This document shows positions 32,455-51,206 of a stretch of 64,000 nucleotides of DNA, piece by piece. The position numbers and the translations under genes were made by a program. Position 1 is the first letter of the stretch. Each line of letters opens with the position of its first letter. Below the pieces are notes generated by a model. The model made no database searches. It worked only from the letters and a program-made list of their open reading frames with translations, and was not told the DNA's origin. The DNA is from Candidatus Aminicenantes bacterium (GTDB lineage: Bacteria; Acidobacteriota; Aminicenantia; Aminicenantales; UBA8522), in the NCBI GenBank assembly GCA_017886205.1, contig JAFNEO010000053.1:64126-128125 (forward strand), read 5' to 3'.

Positions 32455-32458
32455 CGTC

Positions 32459-33490: not shown

Positions 33491-33912
33491 TAGGGATTTC
33501 TCCTCAGCTTGGTTTGAGGCCCGAGGGGTTTCAGTTCCTTGACGAAATCCTTGATGATTTGGGTGAACTTGGTCCCTTCGGCCGCCGAAACCCAGGACAT
33601 TTGGAACCTCTGAGTTTCGAGGCCGACGTATTCCAGGAGCTTTTTGACGAGGTTCAGCCGACGCCTGGCGTAATAATTCCCCTTGATATAGTGGCAGTCG
33701 CCCGGATGACAGCCGGAGACGAGAACCCCGTCGGCGCCCTTGTTGAAGGCCGAGAAAATGTAGAGCGGGGATACGCTGCCGGAGCACATGACTTGGATGG
33801 GGACAACGTTGGGAGGGTATTCCATCCGGGAAACGCCGGCCAGGTCGCTCCCGGCCGAGGAACACCATTTGCACAGAAAGGCGACGATCCGCGGTTCGTA
33901 ATCCTCCGCCAT
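33490..33912 (-). CDS. mvhD: methyl-viologen-reducing hydrogenase delta subunit-like protein (MvhD/FlxD)
   Basis: About 141 aa. Cys pattern CKWCSSAG...CSGSVSP...SGCHPGDCHY is typical of MvhD. The ATG at 33912 lies 2 nt after the hdrA stop. Confidence 0.8.
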   Translation of the reverse strand: MAEDYEPRIVAFLCKWCSSAGSDLAGVSRMEYPPNVVPIQVMCSGSVSPLYIFSAFNKGADGVLVSGCHPGDCHYIKGNYYARRRLNLVKKLLEYVGLETQRFQMSWVSAAEGTKFTQIIKDFVKELKPLGPQTKLRRNP

Positions 33913-33914
33913 GA

Positions 33915-35864
33915 TTAGCCTCCGAGACACGCGTTGATCATTTCGGCAACCTGCTGCTGAGTCAGGTTTTTGACCTGGATGGCCGAGCGCAGGCAGGTGG
34001 CCGTGCAGGTGCCGCAGCCCTCGCAGAGGACCTCGTTGACTTCGACCTTCCCGTCCTTCAGAGTAAGGGCATCATAGGGGCAGACGGCGACACACATCCC
34101 GCATCCCGTGCACAGGTTGCTGATAACCTTGGCTACGGTCGGCGAATGGAACAGCCTATCTTGAGAAAGGATGGCCACGGCCTTGGCCGCGGCGCCGCTG
34201 GCCTGGGCGACGGCTTCAGGTATATCTTTGGGGGCCTGGGCGGCTCCGGCTAAAAACATCCCCGCTGTCACGCTCTCGACCGGCCGCAACTTGGGATGGG
34301 CCTCGGCCAGAAAGCCGTCCTTGTCCAGGGCCAGCTTGAGCTTCTTGGCCAGTTCCTGGGCGCCCGTGGAAGGCCGCATGGCCTGAGCCAGGACGACCAT
34401 ATCGGCGGCGATCTCGATACTCCTGCCGGTTAGGGTGTCGACTCCCCAGACCATGATCTTGCCCTTTTCCTCGAAGACCTTGGAGACCTTGCCGCGGAGG
34501 TAGACGACCCCGTCCTCTTCCACTGCCCGCTGGACGAACTCCTCGTATCCCTTGCCGCCCGAGCGGATGTCGATGTAGAAGATGTAGGCCTGGCCGTCGT
34601 GGACATGGTGTTTGTAGAGCATGGCATGTTTGGCCGTGTACATGCAGCAGATCTTCGAACAGTAGGCGCAATGGTTCTCGGGGTCGCGCGACCCTGAGCA
34701 CTGGATGAAGACGACCTCTTTGGGCTCCTTGTGGTCGGACGGCCGCAGGATCTGACCCATGGTGGGGCCGGAGGCCGAGCATAGTCGCTCGAACTGGAGA
34801 CCGTCGAGGACGTCGGCGTACTTGCCGAACCCGTACTCGGCCATGTTCTCCTTGTCGTAGAGGTCATAGCCGGTGGCCACGATTATGACGCCCACTTCCG
34901 CTTCGATGATCTCAGGCTTCTGGTCGAAGTCGATGGCTTTTGGGTTGCAGACGTCGGCGCACTTGCCGCAGGCGATGGTCGTGAACGGGTCGGGACAGTT
35001 CTTGTCGTCGAGTGTGTAGGATGCCGGGATGGCCTGAGGGAAGGGGATATAGATCGCCCGCCGTCCGGTCAAACCGAGGTCGAACTCGTTGGGCACAACG
35101 ATCGGGCAGACCTTGGTGCATTCATCGCAGAGGGTGCATTTTGCCGGGTCGACATAGGTGGGCTTCTTCAGGATCTTGACCTTGAAGTTGCCGACGTAAC
35201 CGCTGACGTCCTGGACTTCACTGTATGTCATCAGCTTGATCTTGGGGTGCTTGGAAACCTCCACCATCTTTGGCGTCAGGATACATTGCGAGCAGTCCAG
35301 GGTGGGGAAAGTTTCCGACAGCTGGATCATGTGGCCCCCGACAGAGGGGTTCCTCTCTACCAATATCACTTCGAACCCGGTGTTGGCGATGTCGAGCGCG
35401 GCCTGGAGCCCGGATATACCGCCTCCGACGACGAGGGCCCGCCGGGTCACCGGTACGCTCAGAGCGTCCAAGGACTCGTTCTGGCGGACTTTCTCCACTG
35501 CGGACCGCGCAATCTTGGTCGCTTTTTGCGTGGCCTTAGGCTTGTCCTTATGGACCCAGCTGCACTGCTCGCGGATGTTGGCGATTTCGCAGCGGAAGCT
35601 GTTGAGACCGGCGCGCTTGGCGGCATTACGGAAGGTCGTCTCGTGGAGGTTGGGCGAGCAGCAGGCGACAACGACGCCGTCCAGCTTTTTCTCCCTGATG
35701 GCCTGCTCGATCAGGTTTTGACCCGGATCGGAGCACATATAGACATAGTCCTCGGCGTGAACCACACTGGGGTGCTTGGCTAGCTCCTCGGCGACTTTCT
35801 TGACGTCCACCGTGCCGGCAATGTTGATGCCGCAGTGGCAGATAAAGACTCCAGTCCGTTTCAT
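33915..35864 (-). CDS. hdrA: heterodisulfide reductase subunit A (FAD, multi-FeS)
   Basis: N-terminal VFICHCGINIAG, GGGISG FAD motif, an internal four-Cys insertion and a C-terminal 2x[4Fe-4S] ferredoxin domain. 649 aa. ATGA overlap with the upstream kor gamma gene. Confidence 0.9.
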   Translation of the reverse strand: MKRTGVFICHCGINIAGTVDVKKVAEELAKHPSVVHAEDYVYMCSDPGQNLIEQAIREKKLDGVVVACCSPNLHETTFRNAAKRAGLNSFRCEIANIREQCSWVHKDKPKATQKATKIARSAVEKVRQNESLDALSVPVTRRALVVGGGISGLQAALDIANTGFEVILVERNPSVGGHMIQLSETFPTLDCSQCILTPKMVEVSKHPKIKLMTYSEVQDVSGYVGNFKVKILKKPTYVDPAKCTLCDECTKVCPIVVPNEFDLGLTGRRAIYIPFPQAIPASYTLDDKNCPDPFTTIACGKCADVCNPKAIDFDQKPEIIEAEVGVIIVATGYDLYDKENMAEYGFGKYADVLDGLQFERLCSASGPTMGQILRPSDHKEPKEVVFIQCSGSRDPENHCAYCSKICCMYTAKHAMLYKHHVHDGQAYIFYIDIRSGGKGYEEFVQRAVEEDGVVYLRGKVSKVFEEKGKIMVWGVDTLTGRSIEIAADMVVLAQAMRPSTGAQELAKKLKLALDKDGFLAEAHPKLRPVESVTAGMFLAGAAQAPKDIPEAVAQASGAAAKAVAILSQDRLFHSPTVAKVISNLCTGCGMCVAVCPYDALTLKDGKVEVNEVLCEGCGTCTATCLRSAIQVKNLTQQQVAEMINACLGG

Positions 35865-36493
35865 TGTTTTGCCTTTCGCGGCGGATTTTTCTTGATATCA
35901 GGCAGCGGCTGATTTTTCAGGGGCTTCAGCTCTTTTTGGGGCTTTTCTTTTTCTTTGGCCAAGAGCTCGACCCCGTAGTCATAGCCTTTCTCGAACGCTC
36001 GGATGTTGAGCTCTAAGAATCTCTTGGGGACCAGGCCGGGCAGAGCTTTTTTCATGGCCTCGGGGGAGACCACCCGGCTGATGCCGGTGAAAAACCCGAG
36101 CATGACCAGGTTGGCGAAGATGCGGTTCCCCATCTCCTCGGCGAACCGGGTTGAGGGGACGCCGTAGGATTTGATCTGGCCGCGCGCCGGCTTCAGCCGA
36201 ACTAGGTCCGTATCATAAATCAGGATCCCGTCCGCACGGAGATCCGGCTCGTATTTCTCGTAGGCGTCCTGGGACATGGAGACGAGGATTTCCGGACGCG
36301 TGATGTACGGATAGAGGACGCGGTCTTCTGAGATCACGACCTGGGAGCTGCAGGCGCTTCCGCGGGCTTCCGGGCCGAAGCTCTGGGTCATGGTCCCGAA
36401 TTTATTATCAAAGAGCGAAACGGCCTTGCCGGTGATCAAACCGCAGCGGATGATCCCCTGGCCGCCATAGCCGGAAAAACGGATCTCGTTCAT
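35861..36493 (-). CDS. korC: 2-oxoacid:ferredoxin oxidoreductase gamma subunit
   Basis: GYGGQGI motif typical of POR/KOR/VOR gamma subunits. ATGA overlap with the beta subunit. Confidence 0.8.
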   Translation of the reverse strand: MNEIRFSGYGGQGIIRCGLITGKAVSLFDNKFGTMTQSFGPEARGSACSSQVVISEDRVLYPYITRPEILVSMSQDAYEKYEPDLRADGILIYDTDLVRLKPARGQIKSYGVPSTRFAEEMGNRIFANLVMLGFFTGISRVVSPEAMKKALPGLVPKRFLELNIRAFEKGYDYGVELLAKEKEKPQKELKPLKNQPLPDIKKNPPRKAKQ

Positions 36494-37359
36494 GGTTTCA
36501 CTCCATAGGGCACGTATTTATCGCCCAGGGTCTTCTGGAGATGAGTGTTCATGCATTCGAGGTAGGTAGGCTTGTCCCTGTCCACGAACTTGCCGACGAT
36601 GATCTTTCCCTGGAAATCGATGGGCACAGTGCGCGTGTCGGCACCGTGCCTCATCTCGGATTTGTCATAGTAATATTTGAGCAGGTTTAATCCGTCGCCC
36701 AGCCTGTTCCGTCGGGCGTAGAGAGTGACGCAGGGTGTGATGACCTCGATAAAGGAGAACCCTCTCTTGACCAGCGCCTCTTGGATGGACTTGGTGACCC
36801 GGCGGATATGGAGGGAGGTCCAACGGGCGACATAACTTGCGCCGCAGGCGTCGGCGAGGTAGGCCAGGTTGAATGGGTATTCAAAGTTCCCATAGGGCGC
36901 CGTCGAAAGGTTGGCCGTAAGCGGGGTCGTGGGTGCCACCTGACCTCCCGTCATGGCGTAATTGAAATTGTTGACGCAGATGACCAGGATGTCCATATTC
37001 CGGCGGGCGGCATGGATGAGATGGTTGCCGCCGATGCCGGCGATATCCCCGTCGCCGCTGAAGACGACCACCTTGAGCTCGGGGTTGGCCAGCTTGAGCC
37101 CTGTGGCAAAGGGAATGGCGCGGCCGTGGGTGCTGTGGAACGAATCGAACTTGACGTATCCGGCCACGCGTCCCGTGCATCCGATGCCGGAGACGACAGC
37201 GAGCTTGTTGAGGTCGAGCTCGCTCTTCTTCAGCGCCTCGACGAACGAGGTGACCACTGTCCCTATGCCGCAGCCGGGGCACCAGATGTGGGGGATGCGG
37301 TCCATCCGGAGGAAATCCTCCATCGGGTTTCTTTCTTCTGGGCGTTCCTCTTCTTTCAT
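36490..37359 (-). CDS. korB: 2-oxoacid:ferredoxin oxidoreductase beta subunit (TPP-binding)
   Basis: WCPGCG motif and the GDGD..IGGNH thiamine-diphosphate-binding region. Confidence 0.9.
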   Translation of the reverse strand: MKEEERPEERNPMEDFLRMDRIPHIWCPGCGIGTVVTSFVEALKKSELDLNKLAVVSGIGCTGRVAGYVKFDSFHSTHGRAIPFATGLKLANPELKVVVFSGDGDIAGIGGNHLIHAARRNMDILVICVNNFNYAMTGGQVAPTTPLTANLSTAPYGNFEYPFNLAYLADACGASYVARWTSLHIRRVTKSIQEALVKRGFSFIEVITPCVTLYARRNRLGDGLNLLKYYYDKSEMRHGADTRTVPIDFQGKIIVGKFVDRDKPTYLECMNTHLQKTLGDKYVPYGVKP

Positions 37360-38522
37360 CGGGCTGCCTCCTTGATGGCTTTCAGGATGTCGTCGGGATC
37401 GTGGACCCAGCCGCCGCAGTGGGGGACGCCGATGGCCGGGGCCCGGCCGAAGGCGCAGCGCTCGACCTCGCGCCGGATCTGTCCCAGGTTGATCTCGGGC
37501 ACAACAAAGGCCTTGACTTTCTTGGCCAGTTCTTTGATCCGGTCTTCGGGAAAAGGCCAGACCGTGACCAGCCGGAGGGTCCCCACTTTGATGCCGGCTT
37601 TGCGGGCCTCCTGGACGGCCTTGACCGAAACACGTGAAGTGATCCCGTAGGAGATGACCACAATCTCGGCGTTGTCGGTCTGGTCCTCCCGGTAGTCGAT
37701 GATTTTAGGAGCGTTCTTGGTGATTTTATCGACGAGATGGTGGACGCACCAGTCCTGGGCTTCGGCGTTTATCGCCGGGTAGCCGCGCTCATCATGAGTC
37801 AGGCCGGTCGTGTGGAAACGGTAGCCGTCGCCCGCCTTGACCATGAAAGGGACCAGGTCTTTGTCGGGCTTGTAGGGGAGGTATTTTTGTCTGGGTCCCA
37901 CGTACCATTTTCGCTCGACCACTTCGATCTGGTCGGCGGGCGGGATGACCACTTTTTCGTGCATGTGGCCCACACATTCGTCGGTCATGATGAAGACGGG
38001 AACCCGGTAGGTCTCCGCCAGATTAAAGGCTTTGATGGTCAGGTCGAAGCACTCCTGCGGTGAATCAGGGGAGAGGGCGATGATCTCATAGTCGCCATGC
38101 GAGCCGAATTTGACCTGCAACATGTCCGCCTGCCCGACCAGCGTCGGGAGCCCGGTGGACGGGCCGCCCCTCTGGACGTTGGCGATGACGAGCGGCGTCT
38201 CCATCATGGCCGCGAGGCCGATGTTCTCCATCATCAAGGAGAACCCCGGTCCGGAGGTGACCGTCATCGACTTTTGCCCGCCCCAGGAAGCACCGATCAG
38301 GGCCGTGATCGAGGCGATTTCGTCCTCCATCTGAATAAAGATTCCCCCGACGAAGGGGATGCGCTCGGCGAAGCGTTCGGCGGTCTCTGTAGAGGGCGTG
38401 ATCGGATATCCGGCGAAAAATCGGCAACCGGCCGCCAGACTGCCCTCGGCGATGGCGAAGTCGCCGTCGAGGTAGTGAGCTCCGGTCAGGACTCCTTTAG
38501 GGTCTGCTTTCAGTTTTCTCAC
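37356..38522 (-). CDS. korA: 2-oxoacid:ferredoxin oxidoreductase alpha subunit
   Basis: GYPITPS..E motif. GTG start at 38522 with a strong AAGAGGAGGAAG RBS; it overlaps the delta gene by 26 nt. Confidence 0.9.
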
Positions 38523-38775
38523 CTTCTTCCTCCTCTTTTTTGAGAGTGACGAATATGGCGAATTCCGGGCAGATGGCTTCGCAGAGCTGGCAATAGATGC
38601 ACTCTTCCTCTTTTACGACCCGGGGCGCATGGTAGCCTTTTTTGTTGTACTCCTCGGAGAGCTCGAGGACGTCGCGGGGGCAGTACTCGACACAAAAGCC
38701 GCAGCCTTTGCATCTCTGCTTGTTGATGTGGATATCGCCCTTTTTTGCCTTGAGATTGCCGAAGTGGATGGTCAT
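38497..38775 (-). CDS. korD: 2-oxoacid:ferredoxin oxidoreductase delta subunit (2x[4Fe-4S] ferredoxin)
   Basis: [12 protein letters not shown] and [12 protein letters not shown] motifs. 92 aa. Confidence 0.8.
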
Positions 38776-38782
38776 GGTTCCC

Positions 38783-39661
38783 TCAGATCAGTCCCTTCTG
38801 CCGCAGGAGCGGTTGGGGGTCGACATAGTGGAGATCAAGACGCAGGGACTCTTCTCCGCAGCCCATGGCGATGGCCAAGAGCTGGGTGAAATAGAGGATC
38901 GGGATCTTTTTGAACTCGGAGTACTTCTTGGCCGTTTCCTTCTGCCGGTGGTCGAGGTTGAAGGCGCAGAGCGGACAGCTGACGGAGACGACCTCCGCTC
39001 CCCGGCCGCGGGCCGAAGTCAGGATGCTGAATGTCCGGTCGGCGACGGTCTCCGGCTTGTCCACCGTCAGGTAGGCGCCGCAGCACTCCGTCTTATAGGG
39101 AAAGTCGACGGGGTTTGCCCCGAGGACGGCCATCAGGTCATCGAGGACGGTCGGGTTCTCCATGTCGTCGAGGCCGATCTCTTTGGGCCGGACAAGTAGG
39201 CAGCCGTAATAGCTGGCCACTTTAAGGTTGTGGAGAGGCTTTTTAACCTTCTTGCCGATCGCCTCGAACTTGACGTCCTCCCGGAGCAACTCCAGCAGGT
39301 GCCGGACTTTAACGTCTCCCCGGTAGGCGATCTTCTCCTCGTCCATGAACTTGTGGATCTTCTGCAGGCTGTCCGGGTCAGCCTTGATCCTTTCGTTGAC
39401 CCGTTTGAGGGTGTTGTAACACATCGCGCAGAGGGTCATGACCGAATCCGCCTGCTCTTCCTTCACCCGGATCAGGTTGCGGACTGAAGCCAGATGGTGC
39501 ATCAGGTCGTCGGTGGTCAGGGAGTAGACGGTCCCGCAGCAGTTCCAGCGCCGGAGCTCTTGGACGTCGACCCCGAGCTCGCGCAGCGCGCAGAGAGCGG
39601 AGTCCTCGAAGTTCTTGGCGTTGCTCTTCAGTGTACAACCCGGATAGTAGCTAACTTTCAT
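38783..39661 (-). CDS. hdrB: heterodisulfide reductase subunit B (two CCG domains)
   Basis: Two cysteine-rich CCG repeats (CxnCCGxmCxxC: YPGC...CCGTVYSL...CAMC and YYGC...CCGAY...CPLC). Confidence 0.9.
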
Positions 39662-39720
39662 GGGGATTCATTCTCCGGATGAAGTCGGATGATCGTCGCA
39701 TTTGGTATGATCAACGAAAA

Positions 39721-40128
39721 TCACGAGGTGAATTTTCGAAAGCTGCTGATCAGAGCGATGGCCGGGACGCTAGCCTTATCCTCGGCGCTGAGCTTGGGAA
39801 CTTCAACATGATCCTTCCTCTTGCGCAGCAGGACCTGGCGCACGGCCTCCATCACTTCGGCTATCTTTATCCCCTTGGGGCAGCGGACGTTGCAGGTGTA
39901 GCACGAGGCACAAATCCAAACCGACTTTGCTTCGAGCAACTCCTCCTTGAAACCGAGCTGGGCATAGCGGATGACCTGGTTGGGAAGGATGTCCATCTCA
40001 GCGACTGCCGGACAGCCGGCCGAGCATTTACCGCACTGATAGCAGGCCAGCAGCTTCTGGCCGCTGATCTCCTCGATCTTCCTCACAAAGTCGTCCCTGA
40101 TCTTCTTCTTGGAGAGGATGGTTCTCAT
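39721..40128 (-). CDS. hdrC: heterodisulfide reductase subunit C (2x[4Fe-4S])
   Basis: CYQCGKCSAGCP and CASCYTCNVRCP motifs. AAAGGA RBS. Confidence 0.85.
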   Translation of the reverse strand: MRTILSKKKIRDDFVRKIEEISGQKLLACYQCGKCSAGCPAVAEMDILPNQVIRYAQLGFKEELLEAKSVWICASCYTCNVRCPKGIKIAEVMEAVRQVLLRKRKDHVEVPKLSAEDKASVPAIALISSFRKFTS

Positions 40129-40205: not shown

Positions 40206-40234
40206 AGTAAATCACAATTTTTTTTTCCTGTCAA
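40206..40234 (-). promoter_or_regulatory. candidate promoter of the hdr-kor-flx-sdh operon (TTGACA-N17-TTTACT)
   Basis: A -35 TTGACA (reverse complement of tgtcaa at 40229-40234) overlaps the stop of the upstream hydrolase gene. The -10 is weak (4/6 match). Confidence 0.25.
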
Positions 40235-41016
40235 GAAATCGAAGTCGGAGAACGCTCGCCGAAAAAGACGATGATATCATGGATGTCTTCTTGGGCAAAT
40301 CGGCTCTGGAAATAGTCTTGGCTGACCTCCAGCGGGTAGTGGTCGAAGCCGGCCCGGACGACCTTCAGACGGTCGATCTTTTTCTCGAAGAGCTCCAGCA
40401 AAGGGCCGTTTTTAATGGTCCTGTCGAAATGACTGAGGATGAGGACATAGGGCAGGTTTTGGAAGCGGCAGGGTTGACGGTGGGTAAGGATGATGCGAGC
40501 GGTTTCAAAAAAAGTCCGCCCCTCCATCTCGTTCAAGAGAGTTTCGATTCGGTCGGCCGGATAATCGCTGTACCAGTGAAAGACCCGGTGAAACAAACGA
40601 TGATTCCAGATCTTCAAGGGCAGGTCGAAAGCGAGGGTCAATCGAACAAGAAAAGAGTAGGTGGACTTCTTGACCAGACCTAAGTTGAGCCAACGAGAGT
40701 CCAGGAAGGGCGTGATGGCCACCACTCCCTTGCATCGTTCGCCAGGGTCCAGGTGGCTGATGACGGCGAACCCGAAAGAGATGCCGCCCAGGAGATAGCT
40801 GTTCAGGTCCAGGTCATCGATCCGGCGCCGAACATAGGCCGCGTAGTTCTCAAGAGTGACCTCGGAAAGCGGCGGGATATCACGGACGAACCCGGGGAGG
40901 TCGATGAAATGGACGCGGAAGAAGTTGCCCAGGTAATCGATCAGGCCCCGGAGGACCAGGCTGTTCGTTAAGAACGCGTTGACGAGCACCAAGTTCTCTT
41001 TGCGAATCGAGGTCAC
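40231..41016 (-). CDS. alpha/beta hydrolase fold protein
   Basis: GGISFG (GxSxG) nucleophile elbow. GTG start (no ATG available). Confidence 0.5.
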   Translation of the reverse strand: MTSIRKENLVLVNAFLTNSLVLRGLIDYLGNFFRVHFIDLPGFVRDIPPLSEVTLENYAAYVRRRIDDLDLNSYLLGGISFGFAVISHLDPGERCKGVVAITPFLDSRWLNLGLVKKSTYSFLVRLTLAFDLPLKIWNHRLFHRVFHWYSDYPADRIETLLNEMEGRTFFETARIILTHRQPCRFQNLPYVLILSHFDRTIKNGPLLELFEKKIDRLKVVRAGFDHYPLEVSQDYFQSRFAQEDIHDIIVFFGERSPTSIS

Positions 41017-41065: not shown

Positions 41066-43210
41066 TCAATCTGAGGCCGGACGGTGTTTCGGCCGGGTGA
41101 GGAGAAAAAGAAGCCCTATGGCATTGAGGAGGATGACCGAATCGATGACCCGGGACAATCCGGCCAGAGGGATGAGGAGAGAGGACGTCACGAGTGCTCC
41201 GATAAAAGACCCGACGAGGTCGAGGCCATAGCCGCGCCCATAGTCCGCACGGACGCGGAGATAAAGCCGATTGGAGACAACAAACAAGCCTCCGCCGAGG
41301 ATTCCTAAGAAAAACAAGATGAGAAAAGCGAGGACCTCGGGGAGTCTTGCCGGAAGAGCCATCCGGAAAAGACCGAGAAGAAGCATAAACCCGATTTGGA
41401 TGGCCGCCAGCCATCTGTAAGTCGGGCGGCTGATCCGGGTGCCCAAGAGGGCGCCCAGAAACAGCCCGAGCATGAAGGTGGACAGCAGCAAGGCGATTCG
41501 CCCATAGAGAAAGCCATAGAGCGCCTGGAACCAGATGAGGAGGACGATCTCCGCCACGATCGTCGTCAGACCCATTACGGCTAGGGGAAGCAAGCTGTAT
41601 ATGGCCTCTCCTTTTCTAGCGCGCAGGACCGGGAGGAGCAAGACGAAGAGAAAGAGAGGCAGCCCGAGAAGCCAAGACACGGGAACCCTAGAAAAAAAGT
41701 GCAGGATCGCTGCCCCGGGTCCCCGAAATTGAGTGCTCCAGAGAGAGGCGTTCAGAAAGAAACTCACTGGGGCAAAGTCCGAATTGAGCCGAGGCGAGCC
41801 CGAGGCCAGCATGCCTTCGAGATACCGGACACGCAGCGCATGGAGGCGAGACTGAAGAGACCGGGCCCCGAGGTATCGGGTTGACAAGGCGAGAGAGGCG
41901 ATCCGGCGGCTGAGCTCTTGGGGGTCAAGCGTCAATGGCGCAGTAGAAGCTAAAAAAATACTCCGATCTCCGGGCACAACCCGAACCTCCGGGAATACTC
42001 TGGATAGAGTGTAGTATAGAGAGGAGAGGAACTGCTGGAGCTCCGGGCCGATGACAGTCTCCGAAGAAGGGATGGGAAAGGACAGGATGCCGTCAGAGCT
42101 GAGGTGACGCTGGGCCAGGAGGAAAAACTCAAGGGTATAATACCTGTTGACCTGGGCTGTGGCGGGCTCGGGAAGGTTGAGGAGCATGACTTGGTATTTT
42201 TCCTCGGTCCGCTGGAGGAATGTTCGTCCGTCCTGAAAGATGATGCGGACTCGGGCGGCGGCTAGGTTAGCCTTATCCTCATCTCCCAAGAAAACCCGGG
42301 ATAGGTTGATGATCTCAGGGTCGAGCTCGACGTAATCGATCTTCGCCCCGGGGTATTTGAGCAGCTCTCCGAGAGCACCGCCCGGCCCTCCGCCGATGAG
42401 GAGGATTCGGCGGGCTTCTGGATTTTGGAGCATAGCGAAATGAACGGATTCCTCGGCCGCTGCCGGATCGGGCACGGAATAGACGGGCGAGTTGTTGCTG
42501 TAAAGGGAGAGTTGTTCCTTGGCCCGGATGAGTTGAAGTCGACCATAGCGGGTATCGCGTGTGATGAGGAGCTGGAACGGTTTCCAGTAAGCCCTTTGGC
42601 TGGGAAGGTCGGCCAACCAGAATCCGCAAAGAAGGATCATGATGCCCAGCGCCCAAATAAGAGAAGGCTTTTCGTGGTCCGTCCAAAAGATCAAAAGCGC
42701 GATTGTCCCGGCGATGACCGTGGCCGTGGCCCAGGACGAGGAGGAAAGCGTCATCAATAGATAGATGAGAGGGCCGGCCGCCACGGCGCCCAAGGATTCC
42801 AGGATATAAACCCGGCTGATATCCCCTGCCTGCCGGCTCACATTGATGACGAACAAGGCTCCCAGGGGAAAGCCGATCAGGAGACAGAGCCCAAAGGACA
42901 TAATGATGATCGGGGACAGCCCCACAATTTCGCCGGGCAAGACATGGAATAGGAAGCGTGAGAACCTAACCGCGAGGAGGGCGAAGGGGAACAGGAAAAT
43001 GACAACGAGATAGAGAGAAGTCTGGTTGGGAAAGGACTTCGCTTTCCCGGCCGCCAGGCTTCCCAACCCCACCCAGAGGAGCCAGGAAGCGAGGATGATG
43101 CCCAGCGTCAGCTCGTTCCCTGAAAAATAGGCAGCGAATTCCCGGAGCAGTAAGATTTGGAAGGAAGTCGCCAGCAACCCGAGAAGAAAGGCGGGGAGGT
43201 CTTTTCTCAA
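41066..43210 (-). CDS. polytopic membrane protein fused to a spermidine/spermine synthase-like (aminopropyltransferase, class I SAM-MTase fold) domain
   Basis: N-terminal half is a multi-TM domain. The C-terminal half carries LLIGGGPGGA...VDYVELDPEIINLSRVF...LLNLPEP, typical of spermidine synthase. The start is uncertain: TTG at 43210 (TTGA coupling to the radical SAM stop) or TTG at 43249. Confidence 0.55.
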   Translation of the reverse strand: MRKDLPAFLLGLLATSFQILLLREFAAYFSGNELTLGIILASWLLWVGLGSLAAGKAKSFPNQTSLYLVVIFLFPFALLAVRFSRFLFHVLPGEIVGLSPIIIMSFGLCLLIGFPLGALFVINVSRQAGDISRVYILESLGAVAAGPLIYLLMTLSSSSWATATVIAGTIALLIFWTDHEKPSLIWALGIMILLCGFWLADLPSQRAYWKPFQLLITRDTRYGRLQLIRAKEQLSLYSNNSPVYSVPDPAAAEESVHFAMLQNPEARRILLIGGGPGGALGELLKYPGAKIDYVELDPEIINLSRVFLGDEDKANLAAARVRIIFQDGRTFLQRTEEKYQVMLLNLPEPATAQVNRYYTLEFFLLAQRHLSSDGILSFPIPSSETVIGPELQQFLSSLYYTLSRVFPEVRVVPGDRSIFLASTAPLTLDPQELSRRIASLALSTRYLGARSLQSRLHALRVRYLEGMLASGSPRLNSDFAPVSFFLNASLWSTQFRGPGAAILHFFSRVPVSWLLGLPLFLFVLLLPVLRARKGEAIYSLLPLAVMGLTTIVAEIVLLIWFQALYGFLYGRIALLLSTFMLGLFLGALLGTRISRPTYRWLAAIQIGFMLLLGLFRMALPARLPEVLAFLILFFLGILGGGLFVVSNRLYLRVRADYGRGYGLDLVGSFIGALVTSSLLIPLAGLSRVIDSVILLNAIGLLFLLTRPKHRPASD

Positions 43211-44328
43211 GCCCAGATCCCGGGAATGGGGTATTGGCAGGATCTGCAAGCTCCCTTATTCATGGCCACCGCTTTGACTTGCATCCCGAATCGTTCGATG
43301 ACCATGTTCCGGCAACGGGGGCAGTAGGTGTTTTCGGCGCTGTGGCCGGGGACATTGCCCACATAGACGTAATGCATCCCTTCCTCGATGGCTATATCGC
43401 GCAAGGATTCGAGCGTGGAGATCGGGGTGGGGGGCAGGTTCTTGACGAGGTACATCGGCTGAAACCGGGTGAAATGAAGGGGGATGTCGCGACCAACCTC
43501 CTTGGCCATCCAGCGGCACATGCTCCTGATGTCTTCCTCGCGGTCGTTAAGCGTCGGGATAACGAGATAGACGATCTCGAGCCAGACCTTGCTCTGGCTC
43601 ACCGTCCGGATGGATTCGAGAACCGGCTGAAGGTCACCCCGGACATACTCTTTATAAAAATCCTGACGGAAGGCCTTGAGATCGATCTTAGCGGCATCGA
43701 CTACCTTGAGAAGGTCCTGGAGCGGCTCCGGCTGGATGTGTCCGGCCGTCACCACGCAATTCCTCAGCCCTTTCCTCCTCGCCTCAACCGCGGAATCGTA
43801 CATGTACTCGAAAAAAACGGTGGGCTCGGTGTAGGTGTAGGCTATAGAGCGGCACTTATTTCGTTCGGCAGCGGCCGCCACTTCCGCGGGCGGAAGGTCG
43901 AAATGCGGCACCTGCTCCGGCCGCACCTGGGAGATCTGCCAATTCTGGCAGAACTTGCAGTTCAAGTTGCAGCCTGCTGTGGCTATGGAAAAGGCGTCCG
44001 TGCCGGGCAGGAAATGGAAGAACGGCTTCTTCTCGATCGGGTCCACGTTGGCCGAACAGGCCTTGCCGTAGACAAGCGTATAGTACGTGCCGCCGTCGTT
44101 CTGCCGGACTCCACAATAGCCGCGTTCCTTATCGCCGAGCTTGCAGAGGCGCGGGCAGAGGAGGCACTCGATTTCCCGGTCGGGATGCTTTTTGTAGTAG
44201 CGGGCTTCGACATGGGAAAGGTTGGCGGTGTCCTCGAAATTCCAGACCCGGGTCAGAGCCCCCGCCGCGCCGGTTCCCAACAGGAAGCCCGTCCCCGCCA
44301 GGGTTTCGCAGAACCTCCGCCTTTTCAT
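43207..44328 (-). CDS. radical SAM enzyme (AmmeMemoRadiSam / PflA-like family) with a twin-arginine signal
   Basis: CNLNCKFCQNW CxxxCxxC radical SAM motif, an EKKPFFHFLPG region and C-terminal CPRC...CRSC. N-terminal MKRRRFCETLAGTGFLLGTGAAG is Tat-like. Confidence 0.65.
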   Translation of the reverse strand: MKRRRFCETLAGTGFLLGTGAAGALTRVWNFEDTANLSHVEARYYKKHPDREIECLLCPRLCKLGDKERGYCGVRQNDGGTYYTLVYGKACSANVDPIEKKPFFHFLPGTDAFSIATAGCNLNCKFCQNWQISQVRPEQVPHFDLPPAEVAAAAERNKCRSIAYTYTEPTVFFEYMYDSAVEARRKGLRNCVVTAGHIQPEPLQDLLKVVDAAKIDLKAFRQDFYKEYVRGDLQPVLESIRTVSQSKVWLEIVYLVIPTLNDREEDIRSMCRWMAKEVGRDIPLHFTRFQPMYLVKNLPPTPISTLESLRDIAIEEGMHYVYVGNVPGHSAENTYCPRCRNMVIERFGMQVKAVAMNKGACRSCQYPIPGIWA

Positions 44329-44352
44329 GATCTTCTCGATTTCTCGTACGTA

Positions 44353-45249
44353 CTATATCTCATCTTCGATGACCTCTATGGAATCGCTGCCGGCCCGGCC
44401 GAGGCCCAACTTTTCAGCCGTGCCCAGATAGACCGGTTCCCGGTCTTCTTCCTTGAGGGAGGGCAACCCCTTTCTTGAGCGCAGCGTTTCGATCAGCCGC
44501 CATCCCACCGCGTCAGCGGCCACAGGATCCAGGCTGAAGATGAGCGCTCCGCTCCGTTCCGCCCATTGGGTATGATAAGAAGGGCCCCGGTGGTATTGCA
44601 CGACAAGGGCGTCGAGGAGAGTGAGCCTATGCTTGTCTTTGATGGGCTTGGACTCGAAAAGCTCGGCGATGAAGGGATCGCAGTGTGAATCGTGGTACTT
44701 GTTCGGGTTATGGATGGCTCCGAAGTAGTTCTTCATCCCCGCCGTGACCCCCGCCAGGCCATGGTCCTTGAGTATGGCCAGGCTGATGGAGGCGGTCACA
44801 AAATTGGTCTGAATAGTCGAGAAAAGGCTGCCGATATTGCGGTGGGCGATGATCTCCGTTTCGTACCCGGCGCCGGCCGTATCAGTGGCAAAAACCTTGA
44901 GACCGTTGGGGCGGTCGGATAGGCTATAGCCCGCCTCCCGGAGCTCCCGGTTGGTGCGGTCCCAGATGACGATGTTCCTGTCCGGCTGTCCGTTTTTGAT
45001 CAGGAGTTCGGCAAGGGAAAGGGAAAGCTCGGGCCGGGTCGAGATCTTGCGGCCGCCGATGGTGTTGACTTTGATCCCGATGCGGTCGCCTCGGGCAAAA
45101 AGTCGGGCCAAGCCCTCTCCCGTTTCCCGGGCCCCGGTGAGATGCCTGAACCCGAGGGACAACATTTCTGCGATCTTTACCCGGTCCATATCACCGCCGG
45201 CTCCCAACACGCCCTTTCCTTTGATCACTACGACCTTGGACCTGTTCAT
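44353..45249 (-). CDS. DUF362 domain protein
   Basis: KVNTIGG...TRP and KDHGLAGVTAGMKNYFG regions are characteristic of DUF362. The ATG at 45249 is preferred over the TTG at 45267. Confidence 0.5.
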   Translation of the reverse strand: MNRSKVVVIKGKGVLGAGGDMDRVKIAEMLSLGFRHLTGARETGEGLARLFARGDRIGIKVNTIGGRKISTRPELSLSLAELLIKNGQPDRNIVIWDRTNRELREAGYSLSDRPNGLKVFATDTAGAGYETEIIAHRNIGSLFSTIQTNFVTASISLAILKDHGLAGVTAGMKNYFGAIHNPNKYHDSHCDPFIAELFESKPIKDKHRLTLLDALVVQYHRGPSYHTQWAERSGALIFSLDPVAADAVGWRLIETLRSRKGLPSLKEEDREPVYLGTAEKLGLGRAGSDSIEVIEDEI

Positions 45250-45359
45250 CCTGATATCAAGGTACAATTCTCTTCACAACCTGTCAACTTCAGGACGCAG
45301 CGATCCGCTGGCGAATTTGATAAACGGGTCGTTTTGTATTAAATTAATCGGGAAGAAAG

Positions 45360-46283
45360 ATGAGAAAGCGGAGTCCCATGATACAGGCAAGAAGAGCGAG
45401 GCCGGCCCTCCTACTAAGCGTTTATTTTTTCTTTGTATCCTTGGCTCTTGGCCAGGATGCTTCTGAGTCCTCCCTCCGGTCTCTCCTGCCCGGACTGCCC
45501 GCCTGGACTCTCACCGAAGCCCCCTCCGTCTACCTTCCGGGGACTCTCTTCGAGTACATCGATGGGGCGGCCGAGAACTATCTGAGCTATGGCTTCCGTG
45601 AGCTCGTTGTGGGCAATTACAAAGAAGAGAAGTCGGCGGCGACGCTGACGGTCGAGATTTATGACATGGGAGACGAGGTCAGGGCCTTCGGGGTTTACAG
45701 CTCTGAGAGGTACCCGGAGAGTCACTTCTTCAAGGTCGGCTCCCAGGGCTATTGGGAAGAGGGGGCGCTCAATTTCATCGCTGGCTCCTACTATGTCAAG
45801 CTTTTGTGCTTCGATTGCGGCGGAGGTGCCGAGCCGACTCTGGTGTCTATCGCCCGGGACATCGAGAAGAAAGTCCCGAACAATAGTAAGCTCCCGCCTC
45901 GGCTCGGTCTTTTTCCTAGAGATGGGCTCATCGCCAACAGCGAAAAGTTCATCCTGCAGAACGTTCTTGGGTACGGCTTCCTTCACCACGGATATCTAGC
46001 GAGCTACAGGGTTCAGGATCAGGAGTTCGACCTTTTCATAATCCAGGGAACGGACACTCAGGATGCTCAAAATATGGTGACCCAATATTTAAACATCCAA
46101 CGAGAGAGCAGTCAAACCGCGCAGCCGACGAACCTGGGCTTCCATGTCCGGGACCGCTATGCGAATAACATCTATTTCACTCAATCCGGGAACCTGATCC
46201 TCGGCGTCATGAGGATCAAGGACGGGTTCGAAGAAATGGGCAAAAAATACCTCGGGCTCCTGGTGCAGGCGGCGAAAAGCTAG
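45360..46283 (+). CDS. secreted hypothetical protein
   Basis: Signal peptide (RRARPALLLSVYFFFVSLALGQ). No family recognised. Confidence 0.45.
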   Translation: MRKRSPMIQARRARPALLLSVYFFFVSLALGQDASESSLRSLLPGLPAWTLTEAPSVYLPGTLFEYIDGAAENYLSYGFRELVVGNYKEEKSAATLTVEIYDMGDEVRAFGVYSSERYPESHFFKVGSQGYWEEGALNFIAGSYYVKLLCFDCGGGAEPTLVSIARDIEKKVPNNSKLPPRLGLFPRDGLIANSEKFILQNVLGYGFLHHGYLASYRVQDQEFDLFIIQGTDTQDAQNMVTQYLNIQRESSQTAQPTNLGFHVRDRYANNIYFTQSGNLILGVMRIKDGFEEMGKKYLGLLVQAAKS

Positions 46284-46311: not shown

Positions 46312-46686
46312 TCAGACGAACTTGCCGGGCGGGTTTCCCTCAAGAAAAGCTTTGAGTGTCTGGACCTCTGTATCAAGGGAACGGGCCGCTTCCTGAGCGA
46401 GCTGGAGCTGTCTCTCCCGGCCGGCCGTTTCGAGGGCAAAGGCGACTTTTTGCAGGCGGACAAGGCTGAGGTTCGCTGATGCGCCCTTGAGGCTGTGGCC
46501 GAGCTCACAGACCTGCGTGAAGTCTTCCCGGGTGATGGCCTGTTCGAGGAGACGCTTTTTTTCAGCGTATTCCTGGAAATAAATGTTCAGGAGTTCCTTG
46601 AGAAATGAGGTGTCTCCGCCGATCCTGTCAAGGACATCACAAAAATCGATCGGGCGAAGCTTGTCCAGGTTGGCTGAGTCAGACAT
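46312..46686 (-). CDS. Hpt (histidine phosphotransfer) domain protein
   Basis: HSLKGASANL phospho-His motif. ATG at 46686; 8-nt overlap with the upstream GGDEF gene. Confidence 0.7.
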   Translation of the reverse strand: MSDSANLDKLRPIDFCDVLDRIGGDTSFLKELLNIYFQEYAEKKRLLEQAITREDFTQVCELGHSLKGASANLSLVRLQKVAFALETAGRERQLQLAQEAARSLDTEVQTLKAFLEGNPPGKFV

Positions 46687-47620
46687 TGATTTGCTCCCTT
46701 GCCATCTGCCGGTCTTGTCCGGCCACAACCACACAATTGCGTCCTTGCCCTTTGGCTTTGAGAAGCGCACCGTCAGCGACCCTAATGAGTTTGTCGGTGC
46801 TCGCCGTCCCCGGAAGTTCCGAGGTGGCACACCCGGCGGACACGGTCACCTGGACGCTATCCAGCTCGGTCTTGAGGCCCCTCTTGCCCACGGCCAGGCG
46901 AAGCCGGTCTCCAATCCTCTTGATCTCCGTCAGCCCGCAATTCGGCAGGATGATGATGATCTCGTCCCCGCCGTACCTTCCGATCTTGTCCGATTTGCGT
47001 ATCTTTCTTTTGAGGCGAGAAACCACTTGGAGGAGAGCTTGATCGCCGATCGAATGGCCATAGAAATCGTTGATCTTCTTGAAATGGTCCACATCCAGCA
47101 GGACCACGCCCGTCGGTTTCTTTTCCCTTTGTCCCCGCTCCAATTCCTCATTGAGGAACTTGGAGATCTCGGAGCGGTTCCAGATCTTGGTCAGGCTGTC
47201 CCGGCTGGCGATGTCTTTGAGTTGATTCTGGATGACCAGAAGCTTGTCTTCGAGGTCGATGATGCGCTTCCCTGTCTGCAGTCGGGCCCTCAACTCCAGG
47301 AAATTGACGGGCTTGGTCATGTAATCGTCGGCGCCGGAGGAGAGACCGGCGATGATGTCCTGCTTGCGGTCCTTAGCACTCAGCAGGATGATGTAGGTGT
47401 ATTTATATTTCTTGCGGCGACGGATCTTGCGGCAGACCTCGATGCCGTCCATCCCCGGCATCATCCAGTCCAGGATGGCCAGGCGTAGGTCTTCGTCCTG
47501 GAGGGCCTGCCAGGCGCCCTCGCCGCTGCGCGCCAGGACTGTTTCATAGCCCCAGTTCTCGATATTCTTTTGCAGGATCCTTGAGCTGATCAGGTCATCC
47601 TCGGCTATCAGTATCTTCAT
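46679..47620 (-). CDS. response regulator receiver-GGDEF diguanylate cyclase
   Basis: REC domain with phospho-acceptor Asp (LAILDWMMPGMDG). GGDEF domain with a GGDEI active site and an RxxD I-site-like motif. Confidence 0.85.
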   Translation of the reverse strand: MKILIAEDDLISSRILQKNIENWGYETVLARSGEGAWQALQDEDLRLAILDWMMPGMDGIEVCRKIRRRKKYKYTYIILLSAKDRKQDIIAGLSSGADDYMTKPVNFLELRARLQTGKRIIDLEDKLLVIQNQLKDIASRDSLTKIWNRSEISKFLNEELERGQREKKPTGVVLLDVDHFKKINDFYGHSIGDQALLQVVSRLKRKIRKSDKIGRYGGDEIIIILPNCGLTEIKRIGDRLRLAVGKRGLKTELDSVQVTVSAGCATSELPGTASTDKLIRVADGALLKAKGQGRNCVVVAGQDRQMAREQINV

Positions 47621-47658
47621 CGGCTAACCCGTCCGGTCATCTCTGCTGCCCCCCCTGC

Positions 47659-50600
47659 CTAGGCCTTCTTCGTCGGCCGACCGGCATCCTCTCCTGCCGC
47701 GGGAAGCAGACTCATGACCCGGGCTATGGTCTCGGAGAGCTGCTTGACGTTGAGGGGTTTGGCGATGTAGTCATCCATACCCATCGCCAGGCATTTCTCC
47801 CGGTCTCCTTTCATGGCGTGAGCCGTCATGGCGATGATGGGGAGATGGAAGCCGGTTTCCTTTTCCTTGTCACGAATCAGCCGGGTCGCCTGGAAACCGT
47901 CCATCTTGGGCATTTGGATGTCCATCAAGATGAGCTCGAAATTTTCCTTCTCCAGGGCGGCCAGGGCTTCCTCTCCGTTCATGGCGCCTGTCACTTGGTG
48001 CCCCTGCTTCTCGAGCATGTAGATGGCCACTCTCTGGTTGACGAGGTTGTCCTCGGCGATCAAGATGCGGTAGGCATGGCGGACGGGAAGGGCCCCCGGC
48101 TCCAGTCCCTGGACGATTGGTTCCAGAGGCTTGGGGGCTAGACCGAGGACATTGAGAATGCTGTTTTTGAGCTCGGACGGCTTGATCGGCTTGCCCAGGT
48201 GGGCGGAGATTCCGACCTTGAGCCATGGTGATGCATCGACGCGGTTGCTCGAAGGGCTCATCATCATGATAATGGACCTGGCCAGCTCCGGGTTGTCCTT
48301 GATGTAGTCCAGGATGACGAAGCTGTCATGGCCGGGGAGGTTGGCGTCTAGAAGGATGATCTGGAAGGGTTTATTCCTTTCTTTGGCGTCGTCCAGGATA
48401 ATGATGGCTTGGTCGGCACTCTCGGCTTCTCTGACTTTAAGCCCCCAGAATGCTCCCCACTCGCTGATAACGCGCCGGGAGCTGGCGCTGTCTTCGATCA
48501 AGAGAAGGGGCAGGTCGGCGAAGAGCATTTTAGGCCGCAGGCTGGGCGTTTGGTCTTCCCTTTGGGGGATCATGAACCGGGCGGTGAAATGGAACTGGCT
48601 GCCCCTGCGCACCGCGCTCTCCACCCAGATGCGTCCGCCCAGAAGGTCCACGAGTTGAGAGGAGATGGCCAGACCCAGCCCGGTCCCTCCGTATTTTCGG
48701 GTCATGGAGCTGTCCGCCTGGGCAAAGACATCAAAAATGATCTTCTGCTTGTCTTCCGGGATGCCGATGCCGGTGTCGGCGATGGCAAAGTGCAGCAGGA
48801 TGGTGTCTCCTCCTCTGGTTTCTTCCTCCACCGATACCACGACCTCGCCCTTTTCCGTGAACTTGACGGCATTGCCGACGAGGTTGATCAGGATCTGCCG
48901 CAGCCGGCCGGGGTCGCCGATGATGTCCGCGTCAAGACGGGGAGGGATGGCGCAGACAAGGTCAAGCTTGTTCCTGTGGGCCTGGATGGCCAGCGGAGCC
49001 AGAGTTTCAAAGATGAGGTCTTCCAAATTGAATGGAGTCTTTTCGATCTCCAGCTTGCGGGCTTCGATCTTGGAGAAATCGAGGATGTCGTTGATCAGAG
49101 TCATCAAGGATTCGGCCGAAGATTTGATCCCCCGCAGGTACTCCCGCTGCTCGGGCGTCAGGTTGCTGTCGAGGGCGAGCTCCGTCATCCCCAGAATCCC
49201 GTTCATCGGGGTCCGGATCTCGTGGCTGATGTTGGTCAGGAAATCGGTCTTGGCCTTGCTTGCAGCCAGGGCCTCCTGACGGACCCGGACGAGCTCGGAC
49301 ACGTCCGCCAGGTTGAGGATCAAACCCCCGTACTCGCCGTTGACGTAAGTGGGCTTGATCCGGAACATGACCTCCATGTCGGCTAGAGTCCTCTGGACCT
49401 CTACGGGAGGAGAGTTGATCGTCTTCCGGAACGTCTCGATATACGCCTTCAAAGTGTCGAGGACCTCCCCGAGATGGACGTCCCAGAGGGTCTGTCCAAG
49501 AAGCTGGCTCTTCTCCTTCTTCAAGACGCGGAGAAAATAGTCGTTGACCTCGACGATCCGGTCCGCCGTGTCGGCGTAGACGACACCCTCCTCAATTCCG
49601 GAAATGATGGCCGTTAGCTTGCTCGTTTCTTTCTTAATGGCTTCTTCGGCCCGTTTCCGGTCATGGGCTTCGACAAAGGCGGTGGCCAGCGCCTCAACGG
49701 CCTTCTGGTCATCCCGATCGTATCCGCCGTCTTTGTTGGCCAGCGCCAGTACCCCGGTCGGCTTGTCGGCATGTTTCAAGGGAACGACGAGGAGGTTGTG
49801 GACTTCGGGATGACCGATGGGAATGCCGACCCGGGCCGGGTGAGTTGCCGGGCTGTTGATCAGGTGGGCTTTTCCATCTTTGAGCGCCTCCGCCCAGAGG
49901 CCCCTAAGTTTCATGTTATTGATCAGTATCGGAGCGTTGGATTTGGGGATCCGGCAAGCCTTCCATCCTGGATCGCTCATCGAGATCGTGTCCAGGCGGT
50001 CTCTAGCGTTGACTTCGCCTATAAACCCGAACTTGCTGTCGGTGAGGCTTTCGGCGAGGTGGAGGCAGAAGGCCGCCAGGTCGGAGTCGCTCTCGTCGCT
50101 GATGGACTTCTGGAGGAGCTTGTTGATAGCCTCGAGGAGCATGTTCTGCTTCAGGATCTGGGTCTCGGAGTAGCGCCGTTCGGTGATGTCCTTGTCCATG
50201 CCGCGGTAGCCGACAAGCCCGTTTTTGTCGTCCAGTATGGGCACAGCATTGGTCTGCAGGCAGACCAGACGGCCGTTCTTACTCAGGTTCCAGTTCACCA
50301 GGTCAATAAAGGGTTGCCTTTCCGCCATCAGTTGGTTATAGATCTGGCGGACGCGGGCGGCTTCATTCTTGGGCATGAGGTCGAACGGTGTTTTCCCGAG
50401 GATCTCTTCACTTTCGTATCCCAAGATCTGTTTGACCTTACCCGAGGCAAAAGTGAAGATCCCGTTCGTGTCAACCTCCCAGATCCAGTCCGCCGAGCTC
50501 AGGGCGATGTCCTGGAACCTCTTTTCGGATTTCCTCAGTTCCTCCAGGATCCTTTTTTGGTCCGATATATCCCGGTAGATTCCGAATACGGCCTCGAGTT

Positions 50601-50991: not shown

Positions 50992-51206
50992 GTGCAGTCC
51001 TTGGGCTCTACATAAAACGCAAGTTGATTTTAGCCTCCCTGGAGAAAGGGTCAATCGCCTTTCCAGGTGAAAGCCGAGGTGAAATTCGTTTACCATCCCT
51101 CACTGGCGGCGATGAGGAGGCCGTCATCTCGAGATGAGGAAAAACGCGCGGACCTCCTCCCGGAGCCTGGTCGGATAGCTGTTGTTAATCGTTAAAAACA
51201 GGTATA

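Follow-up and report, generated by a model that had tools for sequence, protein, structure and literature searches.

Memo and AMMECR1 occur in organisms from bacteria to humans as conserved proteins, with links to human disease. In the classical AmmeMemoRadiSam system (TIGR04335/TIGR04336/TIGR04337) they accompany a radical S-adenosylmethionine (SAM) enzyme that belongs to a known family but is functionally uncharacterized. Radical SAM enzymes depend on SAM and on an electron donor of low potential, both of which are regarded as cytoplasmic, and to our knowledge no member of this enzyme class is established as acting outside the cytoplasm or as a substrate of the twin-arginine translocation (Tat) pathway. 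Here we describe a gene cluster in a 64,000-nt stretch of DNA from a Candidatus Aminicenantes bacterium (the window, in the numbering of which all coordinates are given). Four genes lie head to tail on its minus strand and encode a DUF362 protein, an AmmeMemoRadiSam-type radical SAM enzyme, a SpeE-like membrane protein, and an alpha/beta-hydrolase (Table 1). What is different here is the putatively exported form of the enzyme, its membrane partner, and the variant with DUF362 and DUF6599. We favor, with a probability of about 0.6, the reading that the cluster encodes a variant of the AmmeMemoRadiSam system that operates outside the cytoplasm. Support for this reading comes from a conserved RRxF motif, a coherent subfamily, apparently exported partners, domain fusions, and predicted membrane topology.

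The 373-residue radical SAM protein begins with MKRRRFCETLAGTGFLLGTGAAG and contains the sequences EKKPFFHFLPG (residues 99-109) and CNLNCKFCQNW (residues 120-130), on the basis of which an initial annotation of this DNA had placed it in the AmmeMemoRadiSam/PflA-like clade. A search with TIGR04337 upholds that placement, giving 383.5 bits (cut-off 220; E = 7.5e-115) over residues 42-372, so that by sequence the protein is a member of the clade. Residues C120, C124, and C127 of the CX3CX2C motif are invariant in an alignment of 26 sequences, as are C55 and C72, and C58, C336, C339, C361, and C364 are conserved in at least 90% of them. The same family cut-off is passed, and the same Cys motifs are present, in classical AmmeMemoRadiSam enzymes; members of the putatively exported subfamily, however, score 359-385 bits against TIGR04337 compared to 636 bits for a classical member. 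Glycyl-radical-enzyme activases (PflA, NrdG, and YjjW type) supply the nearest solved structures and the nearest of the other curated models, and the radical SAM core is shared with them. The window enzyme nevertheless falls far below their level (60.2 bits versus 231.75 for TIGR02493), carries a leader together with extra N- and C-terminal Cys motifs, and no glycyl-radical enzyme was seen among its neighbors.

Since the TIGR04337 match begins at residue 42, the first 41 residues constitute an extra leader. Its n-region (MKRRRFCE) is followed by an h-region, TLAGTGFLLGTGAAGAL, of 17 residues that is rich in Gly, Ala, and Thr (mean Kyte-Doolittle hydropathy 1.24), and by a c-region containing Arg27, the features of the h- and c-regions having been assessed by hand. 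Moderate h-region hydrophobicity followed by a basic residue is typical of Tat signals. In addition, the leader reads K-R-R-R-F-C-E near the N-terminus, in agreement with the Tat consensus S/T-R-R-x-F-L-K. Across the 26 aligned sequences, the most distant of which has 37% identity, R4 never varies and R3 and F6 reach at least 90% conservation. The remainder of the leader is variable, and free variation around RRxF is the pattern expected of a signal peptide. Among the closest 120 homologues, most of which have the same length of 373 residues, 106 were automatically classified as RR-type; of the remaining 14, most can be seen to have KRR, and three come from gene calls that are truncated at the N-terminus. 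K-R variants of the twin-arginine motif are found in the Bacteroidota enzymes. When the best 150 cluster representatives (50% identity) are considered, about 33 carry Tat-type leaders and four carry hydrophobic ones, 13 are extended by long N-terminal fusions, and 75 are leaderless. The twin-arginine leader proposed in the initial annotation is therefore real and conserved, and from it we infer that the enzyme would be exported. A misannotated start, which the annotation had named as the way in which this leader might prove to be an artefact, is ruled out because no in-frame ATG occurs before approximately residue 176, homologues retain the RR motif, and independent gene calls point the same way. 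Those calls, made on the source metagenome contigs, give the same start for the radical SAM gene, identical 373- and 714-residue products for it and the membrane-protein gene, and the same 4-nt overlap between the two.

This overlap consists of a TTG at 43210, in frame with the membrane-protein ORF, that runs into the radical SAM stop codon (TTGA), and the coupling that the initial annotation had read from it is kept far beyond the lineage. Scanning species-representative genomes gave a sample of 80 further loci, on which ORFs were called and searched with the window proteins; eight sequences served as the query because the 26-sequence alignment had proved too diverse. The loci come from about ten phyla, with taxa including Acidobacteriota, Zixibacteria, Eisenbacteria, Omnitrophota, several deltaproteobacterial orders, Nitrospiraceae, Bacteroidota, Ignavibacteriota, Chlamydiae, and Planctomycetota. 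In a neighbor-joining tree of the radical SAM cores, 14 leaderless classical enzymes form one clade and all of the leader-bearing enzymes fall in the other, which comprises 68 loci. Within the fetched DNA, a SpeE-like membrane gene is nearby at 42 of these 68 loci compared to none of the 14 leaderless ones (Fisher p = 1e-5), and at 20 of the 26 loci for which at least 6 kb is available on both sides. Leader and membrane partner hence co-vary perfectly at the level of clades, and both are additions relative to the classical system. Loci L027 and L069 stand as apparent exceptions. Leaderless enzymes at L039 and L043 were rejected, a leader being present in another frame just upstream, which implies frameshifts, probably of assembly; the upstream segments (approximately 5190-5430 in L039 and 2200-2438 in L043) encode a hydrophobic leader and then a conserved EAKYY or ARFY motif. 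The trio of DUF362, radical SAM, and SpeE-like membrane genes, the recurrence of which the initial annotation had proposed as a check, is found again together with DUF6599 in two 4-Mb genomes with different flanks, so that the gene set is conserved elsewhere. Clustering of the neighbors revealed no recurring partner or precursor peptide beyond the SpeE-like, Memo-AMMECR1, DUF362, DUF6599, and DsbD_2 proteins.

The membrane partner has 714 residues, which is the commonest length among its homologues, and a Pfam Spermine_synth match (81 bits, residues 268-390) that lies between two blocks of about seven transmembrane helices. In 37 homologues, the mean number of Lys plus Arg residues per loop is 1.9, 2.95, 2.4, and 1.7 ahead of the soluble domain and 2.4 and 3.5 beyond it, versus 0.08, 1.0, 0.05, 0.16, and 0.5 in the alternate loops. 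Under the positive-inside rule, this alternation implies that the N-terminus is inside and is followed by seven helices, an external soluble domain, and seven further helices leading to an internal C-terminus. The SpeE-fold domain is consequently assigned to the outer side of the membrane, where the loops carry little charge, and would face the periplasm. An AlphaFold2 model of the full-length protein has a mean predicted local distance difference test (pLDDT) score of 86 and a predicted TM-score (pTM) of 0.86, and in Foldseek searches the soluble domain matches spermidine synthases over approximately 280 residues with target-normalized TM-scores of 0.72-0.79. When the N-terminal bundle was modeled alone (pLDDT 87.6), about 40 of its top 50 fold matches in the PDB were transporters of the major facilitator superfamily (MFS), with Foldseek probabilities of up to 0.99 and query-normalized TM-scores of 0.44-0.55. 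A weak direct repeat is detected between the two bundles (hhalign E = 0.011), and the data suggest a 6+1 / domain / 1+6 arrangement, to which that of 14-helix MFS proteins can be likened. A 7+7 inverted-repeat transporter fold was considered and dropped, given that the weak hhalign match pairs helices of the same orientation and that the fold matches are to MFS proteins.

Where the Thermus SpeE enzyme has GGGEG and DLTDP, the window protein has GGGPG and NLPEP. None of the 37 homologues has the acidic residue of the GGG[D/E]G motif, and only three have the initial, catalytic Asp of the D-x-x-D-P motif, which is replaced in the other 34, mostly by Asn. The ribose-binding acid (position 308, Glu or Asp) is kept in 34 of the 37, however, and the adenine-binding Asp (D340) in all of them. 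Moreover, scores against the curated SpeE models lie far below the cut-offs for TIGR00417 (77.6 versus 249.55 bits), PRK00811 (92.3 versus 260), and PRK03612 (135.4 versus 472), and NF037959 matches over the SpeE part only (26.7 bits, cut-off 40). The membrane-anchored spermidine synthases of PRK03612 and the proteins of NF037959 resemble the window protein in having an N-terminal helix bundle that precedes a SpeE-fold domain. The window protein differs from them in falling below both cut-offs, in having a second seven-helix bundle, in the loss of catalytic acids, and in its link to a leader-bearing radical SAM gene. A genuine aminopropyltransferase was rejected on the basis of the lost acidic motif residues and the model scores, and the domain probably binds an adenosyl compound without being an aminopropyltransferase. 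Some close homologues are named "fused MFS/spermidine synthase" by NCBI, and the database label "spermidine synthase" on such membrane proteins is probably a mis-naming.

The absence of Memo and AMMECR1 genes on which the initial annotation had remarked was confirmed for the 64-kb window (no phmmer match; best tblastn E = 0.9), and both are also missing at the L001-L003 loci. This absence is a peculiarity of the lineage and not a trait of the putatively exported subfamily, because about 30 sister loci keep a Memo-AMMECR1 fusion beside the same gene pair. At these leader-bearing loci the two domains are encoded by a single adjacent gene for approximately 500 residues, the tested products of which pass TIGR04336 (239-263 bits, cut-off 26) and TIGR04335 (169-184 bits, cut-off 99), with the family match beginning at residue 37. 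The fusions start with signal peptides of the general secretory (Sec) or lipoprotein type, which are not present at the classical locus L075. Compared to the classical system, then, Memo and AMMECR1 are joined in one signal-bearing protein wherever they occur in the subfamily, and the locus of the window lineage has DUF362 and DUF6599 and lacks both of them.

The DUF362 ORF (44353-45267, minus strand) probably starts with the ATG at 45249, and 24 nt separate the end of the gene from the radical SAM start. Its product matches PF04015 (67.6 bits, cut-off 24), a family assigned to Pfam clan CL0471 together with the N-terminal domain of LarA (PMC11770544), and has the conserved residues KDH...KN...HNPNKYH. 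Although the gene directly precedes the radical SAM gene in the window, as the initial annotation had stated, its partnership with the enzyme is confined to the sub-clade closest to the window, which contains about 15 loci; at several of these it overlaps the longest radical SAM ORF. Eight of 12 DUF362 orthologues have RR Tat leaders of their own (L005, L006, L009-L012, L017, and L020), whereas those of the window, L001, L003, and L004 have none. The DUF6599 protein (Pfam, 158 bits) has a signal peptide, and its gene occupies the same position in L001-L003, L006, L010, L083, and L084; it is a lineage-specific companion of the cluster. PDB sequence searches with DUF362 and DUF6599 returned nothing useful. 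The Acidobacteriota loci L006 and L010 contain the full set of DUF6599, DUF362, radical SAM, Memo-AMMECR1, and SpeE-like membrane genes. In sister lineages the Memo-AMMECR1, DUF362, and DUF6599 proteins all bear their own export signals.

Relatives of the enzyme are physically joined to membrane or envelope modules. The radical SAM domain is fused to DsbD_2 in P0127, to DsbD_2, FMN_bind, and Fer4_5 in P0130, and to FMN_bind and Fer4_5 in P0142, and the FMN_bind domains in question carry the TGAT flavinylation motif. Basic residues in loops 1, 3, and 5 of the six-helix DsbD_2 domain in P0127 would, on a manual reading of the sequence, place the C-terminal radical SAM domain outside. In P0125 and P0133 the radical SAM domain comes after a signal peptide and a large beta-propeller or CBM11 domain, a hint that the substrate in some lineages is a polysaccharide or lies at the cell surface. 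The Omnitrophota loci L024 and L025 have radical SAM, DsbD_2, and SpeE-like membrane genes in this operon order. Flavinylated FMN_bind-type proteins are assigned to extracytosolic electron transfer in PMC8238504, in the text of which the term "radical SAM" does not appear. Such flavinylated FMN_bind, NapH/NosR-like, and DsbD-like modules (PMC8238504) are fused to, or adjacent to, relatives of the window enzyme, whereas the window has none. In the 1314-residue ORF of a Pirellulales locus (L069, 7185-11129), a SpeE-like membrane protein is continuous with a match to the FMN_bind/NapH-like region of P0142, linking the membrane partner physically to an electron-transfer module. P0129 has a twin-arginine motif (LRRHL) ahead of the last DsbD_2 transmembrane helix, before its fused radical SAM domain, and thereby recalls actinobacterial Rieske proteins, the insertion of which combines Sec and Tat.

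The periplasm-facing arrangement surmised in the initial annotation thus gains support from several independent lines, namely partner signals, fusions, and loop charges, all of them read from sequence. In our preferred reading, the enzyme would be loaded with its iron-sulfur (Fe-S) clusters in the cytoplasm and exported folded through Tat, and its partners would be exported through Sec (Memo-AMMECR1 and DUF6599) or Tat (DUF362). Hydrogenase small/large subunits and DmsAB are examples of Tat-exported Fe-S proteins that have signal-less partners. Hitchhiking of this kind is described in general terms in the abstract of PMC10924467. The window resembles these systems in pairing a twin-arginine leader on an Fe-S protein with a coupled, leaderless partner, although co-export is here something that we infer for DUF362. 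The leaderless DUF362 would probably be in complex with the radical SAM enzyme and co-exported as a hitchhiker, since DUF362 is Tat-targeted in sister clades and its gene is tightly coupled to that of the enzyme. At the outer face, the enzyme and the membrane protein would then cooperate. The SpeE-fold domain would most plausibly bind SAM or a SAM-derived adenosyl product, because the adenosyl-binding residues are kept and those for aminopropyl transfer are lost, and the MFS-like half may transport either SAM or the substrate, conceivably a lipid or another component of the envelope, through the membrane or out of it. The DsbD_2-like or flavinylated FMN_bind/NapH-like membrane modules of other phyla may deliver electrons or thiol reductant to the enzyme. 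A full extracytoplasmic radical SAM cycle in many anaerobic phyla, combining Tat export, release and hand-over of SAM by a dedicated MFS-like protein with a periplasmic SpeE fold repurposed to bind it, electrons from DsbD_2-like or flavinylated NapH-like conduits, and action of Memo/AMMECR1/DUF362 on an envelope or membrane-lipid substrate, is a tentative extension to which we would give somewhat less than even odds.

Several observations weigh against an extracytoplasmic system. No extracytoplasmic source of SAM or of low-potential reductant is known, and the window contains neither a DsbD_2 nor an FMN_bind/NapH gene. The DsbD_2-like protein weakly resembles the ArsG permease and may be a transporter instead of an electron conduit. 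The sequence that follows the h-region of the leader shows no clear conserved AxA site for signal peptidase, which makes cleavage uncertain; for the same reason the leader may stay attached to the exported enzyme. A crude motif search found no recognizable tatA in the window. Moreover, Omnitrophota and Chlamydiota orthologues have Sec-like hydrophobic leaders that lack RR, which is hard to square with export of a folded Fe-S enzyme. The leaderless DUF362 of the window could simply be cytoplasmic, and at two deltaproteobacterial loci (L018, 162-755; L019, 575-1141) a separate, signal-less AMMECR1 gene adjoins the genes for a Tat-leader radical SAM enzyme and a SpeE-like membrane protein. Finally, the topology derives from an in-house hydropathy and positive-inside script, and the MFS matches have weak E-values (0.1-1) and no counterpart in Pfam (no MFS match at E <= 0.01).

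One of these difficulties disappears if the radical chemistry takes place in the cytoplasm, or once only with pre-bound SAM, a partner such as DUF362 being modified or activated before or during Tat co-export. Outside, the enzyme would then be a passenger, a scaffold, or a single-turnover catalyst that the SpeE-fold domain docks or from which it clears adenosyl products. This is a serious alternative, if an unlikely one. The problem of a periplasmic SAM supply is avoided, the DUF362 of the window has no leader and its gene is tight against that of the enzyme, and the family core resembles protein-activating enzymes of the PflA type. Tat is also described, in the abstract of PMC10924467, as exporting folded, cofactor-loaded complexes in which some partners are signal-less. 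On the other hand, the presence of DsbD_2 and FMN_bind/NapH-like modules in fusions and shared operons suggests that reductant is supplied continually at the outer face, and Memo-AMMECR1 partners with Sec signals would meet the enzyme only after export. The strongly conserved adenosyl-binding site in a domain predicted to be periplasmic likewise speaks against this alternative.

The pairing put forward in the initial annotation, in which a periplasm-facing radical SAM enzyme works with a genuine membrane polyamine aminopropyltransferase, for example in building or modifying envelope polyamines, seems very improbable. It can draw on the full SpeE fold, the Pfam Spermine_synth match, and weak matches to SpeE models; every curated SpeE model, however, is far under its cut-off, the acid that recognizes the aminopropyl amine of decarboxylated SAM is missing from all 37 homologues, and the first catalytic Asp has usually become Asn, so that a polyamine-type transferase is unlikely. 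Still less credible, in our view, is an ordinary cytoplasmic AmmeMemoRadiSam enzyme, perhaps peripheral at the membrane, with a leader that is no export signal and neighbors that are unrelated to it. The canonical family is cytoplasmic, as are SAM and reductants, and gene neighborhoods in metagenome assemblies can mislead. Against this stand the retention of RRxF in a leader that otherwise drifts, the clade-level covariation of leader and SpeE-like partner, the overlapping start and stop codons, and export signals on four different types of partner.

If the extracytoplasmic reading is correct, SAM-dependent radical chemistry would occur in the cell envelope, and on the single-shot alternative a pre-loaded enzyme would be exported by Tat; either would be new. 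An exported version of Memo/AMMECR1 would narrow the substrates to envelope or membrane molecules and name concrete partners, and membrane proteins labeled "spermidine synthase" would acquire their first functional context. We found no description of the putatively exported form, of its membrane partner, or of the variant with DUF362 and DUF6599 in the searchable literature, although one study of Memo contexts may already mention related ones. Burroughs et al. (2019) reportedly analyzed Memo-AMMECR1-radical SAM gene contexts, which could overlap with the present finding, and reportedly extended the contexts of Memo and linked it to the modification of nucleotide bases and isoprenoids. In PMC7159879, that study is cited for "Memo-Ammecr1 systems".

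Table 1. Features of the radical SAM cluster and its immediate surroundings, in window coordinates.
Feature	Coordinates	Strand	Basis
Radical SAM enzyme, AmmeMemoRadiSam type (TIGR04337), 373 aa, with N-terminal Tat leader	43207..44328	-	TIGR04337 and Pfam Radical_SAM
Leader of the radical SAM enzyme, aa 1-41	44206..44328	-	Outside the TIGR04337 match
Twin-arginine core RRRFC, aa 3-7	44308..44322	-	Conservation of R4, R3, and F6 in 26 homologues
CX3CX2C radical SAM cluster motif, C120/C124/C127	43948..43971	-	Alignment columns invariant or at least 90% conserved
DUF362 protein, PF04015, without leader	44353..45249	-	Pfam, 67.6 bits
Polytopic membrane protein, 714 aa: seven transmembrane helices, SpeE-fold domain, seven transmembrane helices	41066..43210	-	Pfam, homologue lengths, AlphaFold2 model
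N-terminal seven-helix bundle, aa 1-210, MFS-like	42581..43210	-	Separate model (pLDDT 87.6); Foldseek
SpeE-fold domain, predicted periplasmic	41726..42580	-	Foldseek, loop charges, motif counts
C-terminal seven-helix bundle, aa 496-714, and stop codon	41066..41725	-	Topology, model, hhalign repeat
DUF6599 protein, Sec-type signal peptide	45360..46283	+	Pfam, 158 bits
Divergent intergenic region between DUF362 and DUF6599	45250..45359	.	Position only

Promoters presumably lie in the divergent intergenic region between the DUF362 and DUF6599 genes; a scan for promoters and terminators gave sites that are no more numerous than in shuffled sequence. The alpha/beta-hydrolase gene (40231-41016, minus strand; borderline Pfam scores) begins 49 nt downstream of the membrane-protein gene and is probably outside the system because its position is not conserved in L001 or L002. 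Genes for a hybrid histidine kinase, a GGDEF response regulator, and an Hpt protein (46312-51096, minus strand) flank the cluster, as they do in L001 (1-4170) and do not in L002, and could be a regulator of the cluster or merely reflect shared gene order. The flanks consist of housekeeping genes, encoding a 2-oxoacid:ferredoxin oxidoreductase, Hdr-like proteins, a two-component system, RNase III, and pyrimidine enzymes and including ribF, prfB, and lnt, and the cluster is therefore not a mobile island.

Among these neighbors, the region 31405-40128 (minus strand) encodes a four-subunit 2-oxoacid:ferredoxin oxidoreductase beside HdrB/HdrC-like CCG and ferredoxin proteins and FAD-dependent oxidoreductases, which indicates a metabolism that is strictly anaerobic and based on ferredoxin; in L002, a comparable block comes after the cluster. 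Paralogues of the TIGR04337-type enzyme occur in pairs at two of the sampled loci, in tandem in L028 (8718-11122) and, with a weak match, in convergent orientation in L022 (2249-4515). Finally, prfB (57108-58220, minus strand) appears to need the classic +1 programmed frameshift, in that the ORF at 57108-57788 encodes only the C-terminal part of the protein (PCRF 121-194 and RF-1) and a CTTTGAC shift site lies one frame back at 58149-58143.

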